From a virus (Duplodnaviria; Heunggongvirae; Uroviricota; Caudoviricetes), in IMG/VR virus record IMGVR_UViG_2563366870_000003: a stretch of DNA of 48,200 nucleotides; one strand, 5' to 3'. Made by a program: the position numbers and the translations under genes. Positions 2,059 to 25,735 of the stretch are shown here, piece by piece. How positions within the stretch are numbered: the first letter of the stretch is position 1; every line of letters starts with the position of its first letter. Under the pieces are notes generated by a model. It ran no database searches, had not been told where the DNA came from, and worked only from the letters and a program-made list of their open reading frames with translations.

Positions 2059-2791
2059 GGTTAACTCCTTGCTGTGTGGCGTCGAGTAATAAATCCCACA
2101 ACCGCTGAGAGCAATTTCCGCATGTACAGCGTTGACCCACAACGTTTATCGCGTTGCTGATTTCCGGCGTTACCTGTTTAGGAACCATAACCCAACCATC
2201 CGGAGTTACCGGAAGCGAGAACGGCAGCACATCTCTGTGAACAAGTTTTTGCTGTGACAGGTTATCCAGAACTTTCTGTACTGCTGCATCACCGAATACA
2301 CCAAGCGCATCTGCCATAACTCCTACAACCTGATAAGCCTCAGCGCATACCGTGGATAAACCATCCGGAATTACCGGAGAGTTGCCGGGTTCTTTAATGT
2401 GCAAGCGAGGCTCACCATCTTTTGGCTCAGGCCACTGGCGCTCCATGTTGATCTTCAATTTATCTTCCATAGCAACGGTAATTTCAGCATCGCTGATGCC
2501 AGCACGGCGCTGTGCATCCCACAACAGAAACTGCATATCAGCCCACTCGCTAAGATCGTCTGGTTCGGCTGCGGCTTCCAGTGCCTCTTTTGAGAGGTGT
2601 TTCAGTGGACCAATGGGGCCAACGCAGCCAAATGTGGAGTCAGACCATTTGGCATGCTCGTGGCGAATCTGTTCGCGTTCCAGTGATGCCAGTGCAATTC
2701 GTGCTAGTTCCATTTGTTCGCCACGAGTAAGCCCGTTTTCAAGCGGATTTTTAATGAACAATTCAATACGTTCTTTGGTAATAGTGGTCAT
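2051..2791 (-). CDS. Phage protein with MazG-like / dATP-dGTP diphosphohydrolase-type domain (DUF550-like), 246 aa
   Basis: ORF track; ATG at 2789-2791 with GAGGA SD. Region '…EWADMQFLLWDAQRRAGIS…AMEDKLKINMER' resembles MazG-type nucleotide pyrophosphohydrolase motifs. Assignment from memory. Confidence 0.5.
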   Translation of the reverse strand: MTTITKERIELFIKNPLENGLTRGEQMELARIALASLEREQIRHEHAKWSDSTFGCVGPIGPLKHLSKEALEAAAEPDDLSEWADMQFLLWDAQRRAGISDAEITVAMEDKLKINMERQWPEPKDGEPRLHIKEPGNSPVIPDGLSTVCAEAYQVVGVMADALGVFGDAAVQKVLDNLSQQKLVHRDVLPFSLPVTPDGWVMVPKQVTPEISNAINVVGQRCTCGNCSQRLWDLLLDATQQGVNRG

Positions 2792-2997
2792 GTGTTAATC
2801 CTCAAAACTTTATGCCCGGGCGCAAAAGTACGTGTTTTGTCTTTGCTTATTCGCCACCCGTCTTTACGGGCCTCTTTTGCACAACCAGACCATGACGTAC
2901 CGATATACTCACCGAAGTCTGGCACTGGATATACACCTTCCGTACACTGGCGACAATCACAATAGAGATGCATGGTGTAACTTGCGGCAATAGCCAT
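2788..2997 (-). CDS. Small Cys-rich hypothetical protein (69 aa from ATG at 2997; ORF extends to 3039)
   Basis: ATG at 2995-2997 one nt after upstream stop (TGAtATG); alternative ATG at 3039. Contains C-x-C-x2-C. Confidence 0.4.
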   Translation of the reverse strand: MAIAASYTMHLYCDCRQCTEGVYPVPDFGEYIGTSWSGCAKEARKDGWRISKDKTRTFAPGHKVLRINT

Positions 2998-2998
2998 A

Positions 2999-3532
2999 TC
3001 ACTCTCTTTTTCCCTGAAGCATGGCAGCGTGGCAGGCATCCTCTACGCCCTTAACTGCATCTGCGCAGTAGTTATAGCGATTGCATTCCACTAACTTCTG
3101 CCTGAGATTTTCAATTGCTTGCGCGACATCAGCCTGTATTACAGGAACTGGCGGAACGGCTGTCTGCTGCTCTCGAACGTCATTAGTCGCTATCGGTTCT
3201 GCTGCCAACTGACTGGCATATTTGTTAATGGTAACGATAAGCTCTTGCTCAGCCTCATCCAGACAATCACCGATACCTCGCCTGTCGCCGTCAAAATCAT
3301 CGAAATCAGCACGAACTCTGGCAAATTTCAGGATTGCGGACAACACCTCACCAGGAATTACCGGAGAGTTGGTTGACGTTTCCGAAATTTCCCGAAAATT
3401 ATTGGTTGACGAATTCGCGTTTTCCCGAAAGTTTCCGGCATGAAGCATAGCCGCGCGGCAGGCGTTCCAGCCTCTCACCTCTGCAATAGCGGCAACAGCA
3501 TCGACCGCGTACATGCTAAGAGGGTTAGGCAT
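2999..3532 (-). CDS. Hypothetical phage protein (start uncertain; ORF extends to 3607 with TTG)
   Basis: ORF track 202 aa with non-ATG first codon; in-frame ATGs at 3532 and 3514. Confidence 0.4.
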   Translation of the reverse strand: MPNPLSMYAVDAVAAIAEVRGWNACRAAMLHAGNFRENANSSTNNFREISETSTNSPVIPGEVLSAILKFARVRADFDDFDGDRRGIGDCLDEAEQELIVTINKYASQLAAEPIATNDVREQQTAVPPVPVIQADVAQAIENLRQKLVECNRYNYCADAVKGVEDACHAAMLQGKRE

Positions 3533-4886: not shown

Positions 4887-5168
4887 TCACCGTTCCTTAA
4901 AGACGCCGTTTAACATGCCGATCGCCAGGCTTAAATGAGTCGGTGTGAATCCCATCAGCGTTACCGTTTCGCGGTGCTTCTTTAGTACGCTACGGCAAAT
5001 GTCATCGACGTTTTTATCCGGAAACTGCTGTCTGGCTTTTTTGATTTCAGAATTAGCCTGACGGGCAATGCTGCGAAGGGCGTTTTCTTGCTGAGGTGTC
5101 ACTGAACAAGCCCCATGTCGGCAAGCATAAGCACACAGAATATGAAGCCCGCTGCCAGAAAAATGCAT
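4887..5168 (-). CDS. Hypothetical protein in lambda orf61 position, 93 aa
   Basis: ORF track; ATG at 5166-5168. Confidence 0.4.
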   Translation of the reverse strand: MHFSGSGLHILCAYACRHGACSVTPQQENALRSIARQANSEIKKARQQFPDKNVDDICRSVLKKHRETVTLMGFTPTHLSLAIGMLNGVFKER

Positions 5169-5178
5169 TCAGTGGTTG

Positions 5179-5370
5179 TCATACCTGGTCTCTCTCATCT
5201 GCTTCTGCTTTCGCCACCATCATTTCCAGCTTTTGTGAAAGGGATGTGGCTAACGTATGAAATTCTTCGTCTGTTTCTACTGGTATTGGCACAAACCTGA
5301 CTCCAATTTGAGCAAGGCTATGTGCCATCTCAATACTCGTTCTTAACTCAACAGGAGATGCTTTGTGCAT
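5179..5370 (-). CDS. Lambda orf63-like small protein, 63 aa
   Basis: ORF track; ATG at 5368-5370; position and size match lambda orf63 between exo and ea22. Confidence 0.5.
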   Translation of the reverse strand: MHKASPVELRTSIEMAHSLAQIGVRFVPIPVETDEEFHTLATSLSQKLEMMVAKAEADERDQV

Positions 5371-21034: not shown

Positions 21035-22117
21035 TTAGAACTGATAAACCAGACCTACAGCGACGATGTCGTCGGTATCAATACCAGCTGTTTTGGTAAA
21101 CTTACTATCGTCAATTAAGTTGATTTTGTAATCAACAAAAGTGGACATGTTTTTATTAAAGTAGTAAGTAGCACCGACATCGACATACTTGACTAAGTCT
21201 CGGTCACCATGAACACCAAGGTCTTTACCTTTTGACTGAAGGTAAGCAACAGATGGTCGCAGACCGAAGTCAAACTGATATTGTGCTACTGCTTCAAAGT
21301 TTTGTGCTTTGTTTGCAATATGGTTATTACCAAAAACGGTCATATTCTGAGTTTCAGAATATGTGGTAGCCAGATAGATATTGTTCGCATCATATTTCAG
21401 GCCTGCAGCCCATACTTCCGCATTTTTGCCGGAGGCATTGAATTTGCTCTTACCATAGGCGACCTGACCGTCAGTGCGATCTGATTTAGCATAGGTTGCA
21501 CCCACGCCGAATCCTTCATACTCATAAGTAGTGGAGAAACCGAAACCATCACCATTGGCTTCAGTTACGTCAGTGCGGTCATTTTTACCCTGATACTGAG
21601 CAGCAAAGTTCAGGCCATCGACCAGACCAAAGAAGTCGTTGTTACGATAAGTTGCAACACCAGTAGTGCGACCAGTCATGAACACATCTGTTTGGGTCCA
21701 GGTATCACCACCGAATTCTGGCAGGACGTCAGTCCACGCACCGATGTCGTATGCTACACCGTAGTTACGGCCGTAATCGATTGAGCCGTAATCACCAAAT
21801 TTCAGGCCTGCAAATGCAAGACGGGTTTTGTCTTTGGAAGAACCTTGAGATTCAGCACGGTTGCCTTTGAATTCATATTCCCACTGACCGAAACCAGTCA
21901 GTTGATCGTTGATTTGGGTTTCACCTTTGAAGCCAAGACGGGCATAAGTAGTATCACCATCATCTGCATCATTAGAGGAGAAGTAGTGCTTGGCATTAAC
22001 TTTCCCGTATAGATCCAGCTTGTTACTGTCTTTATTATAAATTTCAGCTGCCTGAGCAGACATCGCCATCAGTACTGATGCAGCTACAGCAGAAATTGCC
22101 ACTGTTAATTTTTTCAT
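21035..22117 (-). CDS. Phage-borne general porin (OmpC/OmpF/NmpC family), 360 aa
   Basis: Signal peptide [29 protein letters not shown]; porin signature …GFGQWEYEF…; C-terminal …VGLVYQF; antisense to the late operon. Confidence 0.9.
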
Positions 22118-22544
22118 TGTACGCCCTTTTTTTTGAACTATTATTAAAAAATGATGTCACTGCGCGATAAATATTCATCTAATCAATGCGATTATTTCAA
22201 GATGTAAGTTTTAGTTTCTCATTTAATTTGTGAAGTAGATCTCTATTTTTATCTGAACCTTTTCTATCTAATCCTATTCATGGCTCTTGTTTGAACGAAA
22301 ATAAATCTATTAGCTAATTTATATTAATGGCACTTATTTATAAGCACTCTATAATTCTTTAGCTTAATTTAAACAAACTAAAAATAACATCGGAAATTAT
22401 TCATTGGTTATTTGTTGAAGTTTTCTTATGTATTTGTGGTGGTGTTTTGAACACTCGGTGGCATTCTCACAAATATCATTTAGTAGTTTACGTACGTAAA
22501 AAATTGGTTATGCTGTTAAGAGTGGTTACTTCGTCACACAGCTT

Positions 22545-22577
22545 AAACCCGCCGTCGAGCGGGTTTTTCCATTTTTT
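22545..22577 (+). terminator. Plus-strand intrinsic terminator upstream of the holin gene
   Basis: Hairpin AAACCCGC-CGTCGA-GCGGGTTT (22545-22566) followed by TTTTCCATTTTTT. Confidence 0.5.
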
Positions 22578-22706
22578 GAGTCTCGATATTAGCTGATAAC
22601 CCAATACCTGAGTTATTCACTGACTCCGAATCTGTTACGTTTCTGCCTTTATTGCGATACGTAGTATCCCCTTAATTTACACCCGCTTTGTCTGCGAGGT
22701 GGGGTT

Positions 22707-22922
22707 ATGAAATCCATGGATAAGTTAACAACGGGTGTCGCCTATGGCACCTCAGCAGGTAGTGCCGGGTACTGGTTTTTACAGTTGCTCGATAAAGTCA
22801 CGCCCTCACAGTGGGCGGCAATAGGTGTGCTGGGTAGCCTGGTATTTGGCCTGCTGACGTACCTGACAAACCTTTATTTCAAGATTAAAGAAGATAAGCG
22901 TAAGGCTGCACGGGGAGAGTAA
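22707..22922 (+). CDS. Holin, phage-21 S-type (pinholin), 71 aa with dual start (M1/M4)
   Basis: [71 protein letters not shown]; two TM segments; dual-start motif MKSM. Confidence 0.85.
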
Positions 22923-22926
22923 TTCA

Positions 22927-23241
22927 ATGACTCAAAACTATGAACTGATTGTGAAAGGGATCCGCAATTTTGAGAATAAAGTTACGGTAACTTTAGCGTT
23001 ACGGGACAAAAAACGCTTTGACGGTGAAATTTTTGACCTGGACATCTCGCTGGACCGTGTTGAAGGTGCCGCGCTGGAGTTTTATGAGGCTGCAGCCAGA
23101 AGGAGCATCAGACAGGTCTTCCTGGATGTTGCTGCCGGGTTATGTGAAGGGGACGAGCTGTTGCCAGAAACGCGCCCCTGTTCAGAGGCGCGGTATACCA
23201 TAAAAATTAACAGTTCAGATAACTCGATTACTGGTTGTTAG
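22927..23241 (+). CDS. Hypothetical protein inserted between holin and endolysin, 104 aa
   Basis: ORF track; ATG at 22927 five nt after holin stop; no recognised motif. Confidence 0.45.
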   Translation: MTQNYELIVKGIRNFENKVTVTLALRDKKRFDGEIFDLDISLDRVEGAALEFYEAAARRSIRQVFLDVAAGLCEGDELLPETRPCSEARYTIKINSSDNSITGC

Positions 23242-23477
23242 CCTTTTGTTTCAGTTGGTTTTCCAATATCTTTCATTGGTAGCAGCATTTCCAGATTGCT
23301 TTTGATATATGGATTATTTACATGTTCATTTAATTGATGAATGATTCCATTTTTTTCATTCTGGTCCAATACGGAAAATATTACTGTAATCATATATTTA
23401 AGAGCTTCAATTTCTTTTGCTGTTGATGCAGGAGATGAGCAGTCAGCTGTAATATTGATAAAAACTTCTTTTTGCAT
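23238..23477 (-). CDS. Hypothetical small protein, 79 aa, very AT-rich, convergent with the 22927-23241 ORF
   Basis: ORF track; ATG at 23475-23477; stop overlaps the plus-strand ORF stop by 4 nt; roughly 30% GC. Confidence 0.4.
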   Translation of the reverse strand: MQKEVFINITADCSSPASTAKEIEALKYMITVIFSVLDQNEKNGIIHQLNEHVNNPYIKSNLEMLLPMKDIGKPTETKG

Positions 23478-23611
23478 ATCAAATCCTCAGATGGGGTAGC
23501 TCAGCCAGCATCCCCCATAATCCTTAACCAGAGCGCCAGTGTCCTACCACTGACGGGCTGAATGCTTAACATATCCAGGGTTCAGAAACCGATAAATCCT
23601 GATAAATATCC

Positions 23612-24145
23612 ATGAACGTAAAAATCAGATACGGCCTGTCGGCTGCTGTTCTGGCGCTGATTGCCGCAGGCGCGTCTGCTCCTCAGATACTTGACCAGTT
23701 TCTGGACGAAAAAGAGGGTAACCACACAAAGGCATACCGCGATGGTTCCGGCATATGGACCATTTGCCGGGGTGCCACGGTGGTGGATGGTAAACCTGTT
23801 ATTCCGGGCATGAAACTGTCGAAGGAAAAATGCGCCCAGGTTAACGCCATTGAGCGGGATAAGGCGCTGGCATGGGTGGAGCGTAATATAAAAGTTTCAC
23901 TGACCGAGCCACAAAAAGCAGGTATCGCGTCATTTTGCCCCTATAACATTGGCCCCGGTAAGTGTTTCCCGTCGACGTTTTATAAGCGGCTTAATGCCGG
24001 TGATCGTAAAGGTGCCTGTGAGTCGATTCGCTGGTGGATTAAGGACGGTGGGCGTGATTGCCGCACACGTTCAAATAACTGCTACGGACAGGTTATTCGT
24101 CGTGACCAGGAAAGCGCATTAGCCTGTTGGGGGATAGATCAGTGA
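23612..24145 (+). CDS. SAR endolysin (T4-lysozyme family, signal-anchor-release type), 177 aa
   Basis: N-terminal Gly/Ala-rich weak TM segment ([18 protein letters not shown]) followed by the catalytic E-x8-D-x5-T pattern ([19 protein letters not shown]); resembles phage 21 R. Confidence 0.85.
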
Positions 24146-24603
24146 GAAGAGTTGCCGCGATTATCTCCGCTCTGGTTATCTGCATCATCGTCTGCCTGTC
24201 TTGGGCTGTTAATCATTACCGCGATAACGCGATTACCTACAAAGCCCAGCGCGACAAAAATGCCAGAGAACTGACGCTGGCGAACGCGGCAATTACTGAC
24301 ATACAGATGCGTCAGCGTGATGTTGCTGCGCTCGATGCAAAATACACGAAGGAGTTAGCTGATGCGAAAGCTGAAAATGATGCTCTGCGTGATGATGTTG
24401 CCGCTGGTCGTCGTCGGTTGCACATCAAAGCAGTCTGTCAGTCAGTGCGTGAAGCCACCACCGCCTCCGGCGTGGATAATGCAGCCTCCCCCCGACTGGC
24501 AGACACCGCTGAACGGGATTATTTCACCCTCAGAGAGAGGCTGATCACTATGCAAAAACAACTGGAAGGAACCCAGAAGTATATTAATGAGCAGTGCAGA
24601 TAG
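24142..24603 (+). CDS. Rz (i-spanin), 153 aa, GTG start overlapping endolysin stop
   Basis: GTGA overlap; N-terminal TM segment ([20 protein letters not shown]) then coiled-coil; Rz1 is embedded in the +1 frame. Confidence 0.75.
24362..24544 (+). CDS. Rz1 (o-spanin lipoprotein), 60 aa, embedded in Rz
   Basis: Signal peptide with lipobox LVVVGC; proline-rich mature region ([15 protein letters not shown]). Confidence 0.75.
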
Positions 24604-24634: not shown

Positions 24635-24928
24635 TTATTGTGAGCAATACACACGCGCTTCCAGCGGAGTATAAATGCCTAAAGTAATAAAACCGAGCAA
24701 TCCATTTACGAATGTTTGCTGGGTTTCTGTTTTAACAACATTTTCTGCACCACCACAAATTTTTGCTGCATCGACAGTTTTCTTCTGCCCAATTCCCGAA
24801 ACGAAGAAATGATGGGTGATGGTTTCCTTTGGTGTTACTGCTGTAGGTTTGTTTCCAACAGTAAACGTCTGTTGAGCACATCCTGTAATAAGCATTGCCA
24901 GAGCGGCAGAAAACAACATTTTTTTCAT
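24635..24928 (-). CDS. bor: Bor lipoprotein (serum-resistance protein), 97 aa
   Basis: In-frame ATG at 24926-24928: MKKMLFSAALAMLITGCAQQTFTV…EARVYCSQ; matches lambda Bor from memory. Confidence 0.9.
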   Translation of the reverse strand: MKKMLFSAALAMLITGCAQQTFTVGNKPTAVTPKETITHHFFVSGIGQKKTVDAAKICGGAENVVKTETQQTFVNGLLGFITLGIYTPLEARVYCSQ

Positions 24929-25408: not shown

Positions 25409-25735
25409 ATGAAAAGACGCCTTTTACTACTTTTTCTGTTATCTGTCCTGGCAGTGGGATGCTCGCAGCAAAAAGCTGATGAGCCCCGGCAATTAGTGAC
25501 GGTGTATCCACGATATCCGGAATATGCTGCAGCAAATTATATCAAGGGGCTGGTTGAGGTTAAGTTCGATATTGGTGCTGATGGGACTGTGACACGGATC
25601 GTTTTTCTCCGCTCAGAGCCTCATAATTTGTTTCGTGATGAAGTGGTGAAGGCCATGGCGAAATGGCGATTTGAAAAGAATCGCCCCTGTCAGGGAGTGA
25701 AGAGACAATTTATCTTTACGCCGTCACGTCCTTGA
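25409..25735 (+). CDS. Putative lipoprotein, 108 aa
   Basis: ATG at 25409; signal peptide with lipobox LAVGC (MKRRLLLLFLLSVLAVGCSQQ). Confidence 0.55.
   Translation: MKRRLLLLFLLSVLAVGCSQQKADEPRQLVTVYPRYPEYAAANYIKGLVEVKFDIGADGTVTRIVFLRSEPHNLFRDEVVKAMAKWRFEKNRPCQGVKRQFIFTPSRP

Follow-up and report, generated by a model that had tools for sequence, protein, structure and literature searches.

Among the described systems closest to the locus treated here is a lysis cassette of Escherichia coli K-12, that of prophage Qin. In prophage DLP12 the holin gene essD is followed directly by rrrD, which encodes a lysozyme of 165 residues, and in prophage Qin the order is essQ-ydfR-rrrQ with a lysozyme of 177 residues. 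There is no gap between ydfR and the lysozyme gene (R) in Qin or in phage Tritos, and the K-12 ydfR stop overlaps the R start. We have analyzed the corresponding interval in a 48,200-nucleotide stretch of viral DNA (IMG/VR record IMGVR_UViG_2563366870_000003; "the window" below means this whole stretch), which is a lambdoid prophage adjoining icd in E. coli LF82 and has been isolated as phage Perceval. Over the 1439 bp from holin to lysozyme the window is 99.9% identical to both LF82 and Perceval. Compared with K-12 Qin, R starts 370 nt further on, and an open reading frame (ORF) of 79 codons lies antisense between ydfR and R. The explanation that we consider probable is that an ordinary late gene, ydfR, stands beside an unrelated and autonomous antisense moron that encodes a small soluble protein.

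K-12 YdfR binds the N-terminal catalytic half of RNase E via its residues 1–72, co-purifies with DNase-resistant nucleic acid and, when overproduced, alters few transcripts and causes no growth defect (2026 study, PMC13232886). The YdfR of the window belongs to the same family and likewise lies between a 71-residue class II holin and a 177-residue lysozyme on the strand of the lysis genes. The two proteins differ, however, from about residue 79 onward, where the tail of the window protein is the antisense of the inserted moron, and RNase E binding is known for the K-12 protein only. Two other phage proteins that target RNase E, Dip of phiKZ and gp0.7 of T7, are functional analogues of YdfR only, because K-12 YdfR binds the N-terminal half of the enzyme; neither has a sequence relationship to YdfR.

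The antisense unit itself compares best with the morons of lambdoid phages, in the sense of Hendrix and Juhala, such as bor and lom of lambda or iss/bor and the porin gene of the window. Like these, it is present or absent between conserved neighbors, is low in GC, lies in the region from Q to Rz and is dispensable for lytic growth; bor and nmpC are likewise oriented opposite to the late operon. It differs from them in encoding a small soluble protein, not an envelope protein, and in lying inside the lysis cassette, where it overlaps the end of a late gene. Moreover, bor and nmpC are expressed from the repressed prophage in LF82, whereas for the 79-residue unit we only infer expression in the lysogen.

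Results

Layout of the lysis cassette

The genes of the cassette are given here in window coordinates, with the calls of the Prokaryotic Genome Annotation Pipeline (PGAP) of the National Center for Biotechnology Information.

22707–22922, plus strand: class II (phage 21 S-type) holin, essD-like, 71 residues; PF04971, 2e-35; PGAP "phage lysis protein EssD"
22927–23241, plus strand: ydfR, YdfR family/DUF1327, 104 residues; PF07041; PGAP WP_000193273.1, "YdfR family protein"
23238–23477, minus strand: 79-residue ORF; phrog_21218; PGAP WP_001168526.1, "hypothetical protein"
23478–23611: gap of 134 bp between the 79-residue ORF and the lysozyme gene
23612–24145, plus strand: rrrQ-type phage lysozyme (R), 177 residues; PF00959, 8.5e-24; length and type as K-12 rrrQ; termed a SAR endolysin in the initial annotation

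The ATG of ydfR lies 5 nt beyond the last base of the holin stop, with GGGGAGAG upstream of it. The two small genes are convergent, and the stops of the 79-residue ORF and of ydfR overlap by 4 nt (TTAG). An initial annotation, made from the sequence, had given the coordinates of both ORFs, the 5-nt spacing, the 4-nt stop overlap and the 134-bp upstream region, and all of these agree exactly with the ORF listing and the sequence. On LF82, PGAP calls both small ORFs at identical coordinates, the 79-residue ORF being LF82 1192006–1192245; the GenBank record of phage Perceval leaves the 79-residue ORF unannotated. The GC content of this ORF is 30.4%, that of its neighbors 47–52% and that of the window 50.7%. 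Downstream of the lysozyme gene come Rz/Rz1 and then the bor/iss gene.

The initial annotation had also measured this interval against DLP12, in which holin and endolysin genes are adjacent, and had described some 0.7 kb between the two genes as a single insert. The adjacency is correct for K-12 essD and rrrD. Judged by its lysozyme, which is of the Qin rrrQ type and normally preceded by ydfR, the window calls for a different comparator, and DLP12 is the wrong one. Because the lysozyme is of the Qin type, ydfR is the expected neighbor, and the holin-ydfR-lysozyme order of the window, all on one strand, matches K-12 Qin, Tritos, mEp460 and many other phages. By this comparison ydfR is a native and common member of Qin-type holin-ydfR-lysozyme cassettes, not an insert. 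The insert as one piece has therefore to be given up, since ydfR is native to such cassettes and only 23167–23613 (447 bp) is transferable.

The 447-bp antisense unit

The boundaries of the unit were set by pairwise blastn of the window against related loci. The unit, its parts and the segment that is lost from it are as follows.

23167–23613, minus strand: transferable moron unit, 447 bp, 37.8% GC, comprising promoter-like region, 5'-untranslated region (5'UTR), 79-residue ORF and terminator-like hairpin
23596–23591 and 23573–23568, minus strand: promoter-like box, TTTATC and TATGTT with a 17-nt spacer; 7 of 12 consensus positions
23534–23556 and 23493–23516, minus strand: two 5'UTR hairpins (RNA fold; z-score only -1.3, suggestive only)
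23484–23488, minus strand: Shine-Dalgarno sequence GAGGA, 6 nt before the ATG of the 79-residue ORF (read from the sequence)
23171–23192, minus strand: GC-rich hairpin with a 9-bp stem, about 45 nt past the stop of the 79-residue ORF, then UUUCU (RNA fold)
23167–23241, plus strand: part of ydfR that codes for the C-terminal tail (PETRPCSEARYTIKINSSDNSITGC), antisense of the moron terminator hairpin and 3'UTR
23285–23595: segment of 311 bp deleted in the common derivative (mEp460 type); homology to mEp460 covers 22691–23284 and 23596–24200

The evidence that the unit is transferable comes from a second E. coli locus, L119, whose positions 2371–2810 match 23167–23613 in a single blastn block with 88.6% identity over 447 bp. 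The neighbors of the L119 copy are Phage_holin_8, Phage_holin_3_7 and Peptidase_M15_4, and neither ydfR nor rrrQ is found there. The unit also differs in composition from its surroundings and is present or absent between otherwise homologous flanks. As judged from these alignments, the 447 bp moves between genomes as a unit. The GC content of 30.4%, the L119 block and the pattern of presence and absence thus bear out the view of the minus-strand ORF as an AT-rich moron that was acquired separately and has an upstream region of its own.

When the window is compared with other types of cassette, the match ends on the left at 23178 and returns on the right at 23534–23602. The promoter-like box, about 45 conserved bases, is kept before all four unrelated antisense ORF cassettes described below and in L119, and similarity among the cassettes ends just beyond the -10-like hexamer TATGTT. 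The box at 23568–23596 may be the promoter of the minus-strand unit; its bases sit directly upstream of the R start and could instead serve R translation on the plus strand. At the position of the first 5'UTR hairpin the 90-residue cassette holds a hairpin of other sequence. The second (23493–23516) contains GGGGTAGCTCAGCCAGCATCCCCC, which resembles a tRNA D-arm, and folds as a hairpin just before the ribosome-binding site of the 79-residue ORF. A reading of the gap string TAGCTCAG as a tRNA or member of an RNA family was rejected, as ARAGORN and Rfam scans of the region matched nothing. The hairpin at 23171–23192 is conserved in the related locus AR_0085 and in L119, where it is followed by TTTTCC. 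From its sequence it is best called terminator-like, and the variable slot has its left homology anchor there as well.

Genomic contexts and loss

Three contexts were found for the 79-residue gene, and in each it lies close to lysis genes and on the strand opposite to the late genes. The first is the interval between the DUF1327 and lysozyme genes, as in the window, in AR_0085, where the N-terminal domain of YdfR is strongly diverged, and in L009, which has a different holin family; the protein variants of AR_0085 and L009 are 80–86% identical to the 79-residue protein. In the second context, the E. coli locus L119, the gene lies upstream of a different holin-endolysin set and its ORF is frameshifted at the A7 run to 48 residues. 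The third is found in Klebsiella prophages, in which a homologue of 44% identity follows Rz/Rz1 and precedes an HNH endonuclease; this homologue is convergent with a 150-residue protein unrelated to YdfR, and DUF1327 is absent nearby. No recognizable DUF1327 stands beside the gene in either the L119 or the Klebsiella context. To the extent that sequence comparison can show it, the gene occurs without dependence on YdfR. One Klebsiella prophage contig (L022) has an ORF for an IS3-family transposase at 5093–5356, immediately after the Rz gene; the sixteen Klebsiella loci are similar only up to 5022, so this insertion is seemingly specific to the L022 contig.

The A7 run lies at 23349–23355, inside the 79-residue ORF of the window. 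The widespread allele has A6 at this point (L119 2501–2647) and encodes 48 residues with a 6-residue out-of-frame end, the remainder of the ORF being intact in the +2 frame. The contig collection has 351 blocks listed with this frameshifted 48-residue allele, which could represent either decay or a slippage-prone tract.

The unit is frequently lost. In a survey of 5426 complete E. coli genomes, in which a full unit was taken as a match to at least 80% of its length, 102 genomes contained the full unit and about 334 further genomes contained only a remnant (nt 1–118 of the unit, with the signature of the 311-bp deletion). Of the 436 genomes with the YdfR tail type of the window, then, about 334 keep only a remnant of the 79-residue gene; no such ORF accompanies the other YdfR tail types. 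The 311-bp deletion is present in mEp460, a viable phage, which retains the ydfR frame and the last 45 nt of the ORF. An IMG/VR sample of 80 loci gave a similar picture, with 54 deleted, 5 with an intact ORF and 14 with other cassettes among the 73 that were classified. Only one of 50,697 phage records encodes the 79-residue protein, and that is Perceval itself. On this sequence evidence the gene is dispensable for lytic growth.

The 79-residue ORF and its protein

The 79-residue ORF is very probably a real protein-coding moron. The chance of an open frame of 79 codons at the composition of the ORF is about 0.001 per start. Among five homologues whose proteins are 44–100% identical, the sense frame alone is free of stops, and each of the three antisense frames has 2–9. 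Against the AR_0085 copy (85.7% identical) the ratio of nonsynonymous to synonymous substitution rates (dN/dS) is 0.27, and 17 of the 33 differences fall at third codon positions. One antisense frame, in which the third codon positions coincide, gives a dN/dS of 0.21. This ratio alone cannot choose the coding strand, and the stop counts across homologues are therefore decisive. Both small ORFs of the cassette are conserved, contrary to the outcome that the initial annotation had named as refuting its reading.

The protein matches phrog_21218 (1.9e-57), and 13 columns are invariant across homologues of 44–86% identity, including an Asp-Cys pair at residues 12–13. It is mildly acidic (pI 5.6) and predicted to be soluble. 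No transmembrane segment was found, the maximum 19-residue Kyte-Doolittle mean being 1.03 (1.72 for the holin), and the AlphaFold2 (AF2) model consists of three helices after a disordered N terminus. The family is small, with eight clusters, all from E. coli, in an indexed search. An exhaustive hidden Markov model search of 1.84 billion representatives added three true distant homologues of 50–74 residues; the remaining hits were low-complexity or repetitive giant proteins and were discarded. Scanning the genome contig collection with the family alignment yielded no confirmed loci.

Searches for related domains gave only DUF1514 in Pfam (E 0.022, below threshold) and IraP in NCBIfam (E 0.09). 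PADLOC-DB v2 contained no match at E ≤1 for YdfR, the 79-residue protein or two alternative cassette ORFs, and neither the 79-residue protein nor YdfR has a toxin or antitoxin domain in Pfam, NCBIfam or PADLOC. A profile sequence search of the PDB with the 79-residue protein returned no match, and the best Foldseek hit of its model in the PDB had an E of 3.6. We found nothing in the literature on this protein, its accession or its PHROG.

The plus-strand gene, ydfR

The 104-residue protein matches PF07041 over residues 1–96 with 132.8 bits (gathering cutoff 25; E 5.1e-39) and phrog_2735 with 3.5e-55. It is identical to K-12 YdfR at 59 of 72 residues (82%) over amino acids 1–72 and at 65% overall. 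The protein is built from a conserved domain of approximately residues 1–78 and a variable tail of about 24 residues; in the AF2 model, β-strands at 5–14, 18–27 and 34–43 and a helix at 50–73 are followed by a disordered tail. The same division runs through the family (260 clusters, in Escherichia, Shigella and Salmonella), the alignment of which shows a conserved domain of about 78 residues and then discrete alternative tails or extensions, giving total lengths that include 103, 104, 114–116, 161, 176, 183 and 268 residues. The extensions of the 161-, 176-, 183- and 268-residue variants are too long for chance read-through. YdfR has no transmembrane segment (maximum 19-residue Kyte-Doolittle mean 0.75, compared with 1.72 for the neighboring holin). 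Fold searches with its model gave generic similarities only, with nothing in BFVD at E <0.01, and we draw no homology from them.

As the initial annotation stated, the plus-strand gene is positioned for co-transcription with the lysis genes; the Q-dependent late promoter would serve it together with S, R and Rz. A strong σ70-like site (ATGGCA-17-TATAAT, 22327–22355, plus strand) and an intrinsic terminator (22545–22566, plus strand) lie between the porin gene and the holin, the expected place of that promoter and its terminator. A sub-threshold Rfam match to Trp_leader over the terminator is weak and probably meaningless. By analogy with the K-12 protein, YdfR may be an accessory late protein that acts on host RNA or RNase E; we do not think that it is a lysis effector or a toxin.

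The YdfR tail encoded by the 3' end of the unit

The final codons of ydfR, about 24 of them, are antisense to the moron hairpin and 3'UTR. In L119 a 143-residue protein (2736–3167, minus strand of the locus; body phrog_11851) enters the same DNA in the same frame, such that the two proteins share a tail of 21 residues: the L119 protein ends ...KRLCSEARYTIKINSSDNSIAGC and the window YdfR ends ...TRPCSEARYTIKINSSDNSITGC. The remaining two antisense frames of this stretch, as read from the sequence, stop after 12 and 14 codons. Sharing of the frame is a one-in-three event and therefore weak evidence for selection on the tail, and the shared tail could be due either to this coincidence or to such selection; the tail may still have a function. 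We considered whether the 143-residue protein is a YdfR homologue, but its 97% hhalign match is owed wholly to the shared tail and falls to 1% when the tail is removed. Similarity to YdfR could not be demonstrated for the convergent partners in L119 and Klebsiella, and neither is taken as a homologue. Different types of YdfR tail go with different cassettes downstream of ydfR.

Expression data

The morons of Perceval named in the LF82 transcriptome study are the CI repressor, a membrane protein, NmpC, the TonB fragment and SitABCD, and Bor and EmrE were induced in other media (PMC9928086). The RNA-seq counts of that study (GSE154648; PMC9928086 S4 table) cover only genes annotated in CU651637.1. 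In two LB conditions they give 27–50 fragments over the 315 bp of ydfR and 5–14 over the 534 bp of R, which are low-level counts whose strandedness is not established. Read density over ydfR is about 4–11 times that over R in these two conditions and about 1–7 times in the others, with the same limit on strandedness. In uninduced LF82, S and ydfR have several times as many fragments per base as R and Rz (LF82_0578, LF82_767, LF82_2835). The counts neither support nor refute antisense transcription. We put expression of the 79-residue gene from its own promoter in lysogens at about an even chance. The prophage has further accessory genes, namely an OmpC/NmpC-like porin gene between Q and S (21035–22117, minus strand), iss/bor after Rz (24635–24928, minus strand), and a TonB fragment and emrE (listed at 25409–25735 and 15018–15350, plus strand).

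Other occupants of the ydfR-R junction

At least three other small minus-strand ORFs, unrelated to the 79-residue ORF and to each other, occupy the same slot in other phages and are likewise convergent with ydfR.

Phage vB_EcoS-783R2: 90-residue antisense ORF, phrog_2411, annotated
Phage 2H10 (NC_049950.1; L005 2220–2480, minus strand): 86-residue antisense ORF, phrog_2572 (1e-53), GAGGTG site, unannotated in RefSeq
L109 3317–3631: 104-residue antisense ORF, phrog_1853-like, opposite a YdfR of 268 residues (L109 2501–3307)

In these three families, too, the ribosome-binding site is of the GAGG type and the promoter-like box seen in the window lies beside R; no known domain was found in their products. 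The 86-residue ORF of 2H10 overlaps the 3' end of a 183-residue YdfR-like gene by about 50 nt. In L109, the DUF1327 protein has a C-terminal extension to 268 residues, with no known domain, and its gene is convergent with the 104-residue ORF. A motif that the four antisense families seemed to share ("hydrophobic helix, then P/D-x-E") raised the possibility of remote homology, which was rejected when BLASTP gave nothing and hhalign less than 1%.

As far as it can be described from these sequences, the junction is a mosaic recombination slot. A more elaborate scheme, which we think unlikely, is that it is a dedicated antisense slot with a leftward promoter and 5' hairpin next to R and a GC hairpin inside ydfR. 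Unrelated small genes (at least four families, 79–104 residues) would be swapped in together with matching YdfR tails or extensions, and their products would be lysogen-expressed partners or antagonists of YdfR C termini, or diversifying anti-phage or lysis-control factors.

Discussion

The comparisons above establish a real gene within a unit of defined boundaries that is mobile, often lost and independent of YdfR. On the explanation that we favor, an ordinary ydfR beside an autonomous moron, the unit at 23167–23613 would be self-contained, with a weak promoter-like box, 5'UTR hairpins, a strong ribosome-binding site, the ORF and a terminator-like hairpin. It would encode a small helical protein of the cytoplasm, whose synthesis most likely does not depend on the late operon. 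As the unit lies antisense in that operon, late transcription has to pass through it before R is reached. The protein is probably made in the lysogen, perhaps from the box next to R, and its probable mode of action is binding to a protein of the host or of the phage, although any one specific function that might be proposed for it is unlikely.

Several observations weigh against this explanation. A σ70 consensus scan gave no minus-strand site, leaving the promoter-like box, with its 7 of 12 positions, uncalled, and a strict terminator scan missed the hairpin at 23171–23192 because the T-run (the short U-run of the transcript) is too short. The AF2 model of the 79-residue protein is of low confidence (predicted local distance difference test score, pLDDT, 63), and neither fold nor sequence matches assign the protein a function. 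Because the ORF is missing from the CU651637.1 annotation it was never counted in the LF82 data and could not be listed among the Perceval morons. For YdfR, binding to RNase E and to RNA was observed with overproduced K-12 protein, and the authors allow for a contaminant (PMC13232886). Finally, lysis genes are neighbors in all three contexts and both E. coli convergent partners share a C-terminal tail, from which a functional link is possible.

Such a link would be strongest if YdfR and the 79-residue protein formed a functional pair, toxin/antitoxin-like or concerned with lysis timing as the initial annotation had suggested, in which the lysogen-expressed protein neutralizes or tunes late YdfR or the holin and endolysin. 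The window, AR_0085 and L009, three diverged versions from E. coli, all retain the convergent arrangement with its 4-nt stop overlap, the convergent 143-residue protein of the second E. coli context has the 21-residue tail of YdfR, the tail type co-varies with the following cassette and every context adjoins lysis genes. Two small adjacent genes in a prophage are also what a type II toxin-antitoxin module looks like. Unlike such modules, however, the pair in the window is convergent and forms no operon, contains no toxin or antitoxin domains and shows no strict co-occurrence, and the YdfR homologue is non-toxic when overproduced. The genes are not co-transcribed; the common tail is the antisense of the moron 3'UTR, entered in a matching frame with a chance probability of one in three; the 143-residue protein without its tail has an hhalign probability of 1% against YdfR; and the Klebsiella partner is unrelated to YdfR. 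The 79-residue gene is gone from about three-quarters of the E. coli genomes in which YdfR is of this type, and mEp460 is viable without it. Neither protein has a transmembrane segment or a toxin or antitoxin match in PADLOC, Pfam or NCBIfam, and overproduction of K-12 YdfR was not toxic (PMC13232886). We therefore consider a toxin/antitoxin-like or lysis-timing module unsupported, regard a functional pair as very unlikely and see no evidence of a lysis role for the 79-residue gene.

The unit might instead act mainly as RNA, with a leftward promoter next to R sending an antisense transcript into ydfR and S that damps leaky expression of the lysis genes in lysogens, the ORFs being secondary. 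The promoter-like box of about 45 bp and the position of a 5' hairpin are common to four cassettes with unrelated ORFs, and the higher read density of ydfR over R in LF82 fits a transcript that covers ydfR and not R, with strandedness not established. Yet the 79-residue ORF is under purifying selection and remains open at 44% identity in other genomic positions, each cassette ORF has a strong ribosome-binding site, the hairpin 45 nt past the stop would let an antisense transcript overlap no more than about 70 nt at the end of ydfR, and the conserved box may serve R translation. An RNA function is thus quite improbable. We give a similarly small probability to the idea that the protein is a trans-acting lysis regulator, or a superinfection or anti-phage factor, selected for its position beside the lysis genes. 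In its favor, three independent contexts, from two genera, place the gene beside lysis cassettes, and RIII of phage T4 is a small cytoplasmic lysis-inhibition factor of similar size and type. Position alone is nevertheless weak evidence, because the Q-to-Rz region of lambdoid phages is a zone that tolerates morons generally, and that of the window also contains the porin and iss/bor genes; the protein resembles no known lysis regulator or defense protein, and its gene is often lost or frameshifted. It is extremely unlikely that the ORF is merely a chance or decaying open frame with no functional product. Frequent deletion, the common allele frameshifted at the A7 run, the tiny family (8 clusters plus 3 distant members out of billions of proteins) and the lack of annotation in the Perceval record could all be taken that way; against it stand the chance of about 0.001 for such an ORF, the dN/dS of 0.27, the strong ribosome-binding site, a sense frame that is the only one open in five homologues down to 44% identity, and transfer as an intact unit.

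An ordinary late ydfR beside an autonomous antisense moron has consequences for annotation. A gene between holin and endolysin, here ydfR, is normal for this type of cassette, and reading into the moron has produced, as a by-product, the final 24 or so residues of this YdfR and of the 143-residue protein. The absence of the 79-residue gene from the deposited Perceval record means that published transcriptome tables omit it, and it is an uncharacterized accessory gene in a pathobiont prophage (adherent-invasive E. coli (AIEC) LF82 and related B2 strains). More generally, the lambdoid lysis operon tolerates a whole antisense transcription unit between two genes that need to be co-transcribed, and the same slot has been reused by several unrelated small genes. 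If the dedicated antisense slot were real, it would be a polymorphic two-strand module within a textbook lysis operon. A slot whose small proteins acted on YdfR, on RNase E, on lysis or on infecting phages would offer new phage-host effectors in a compact form.

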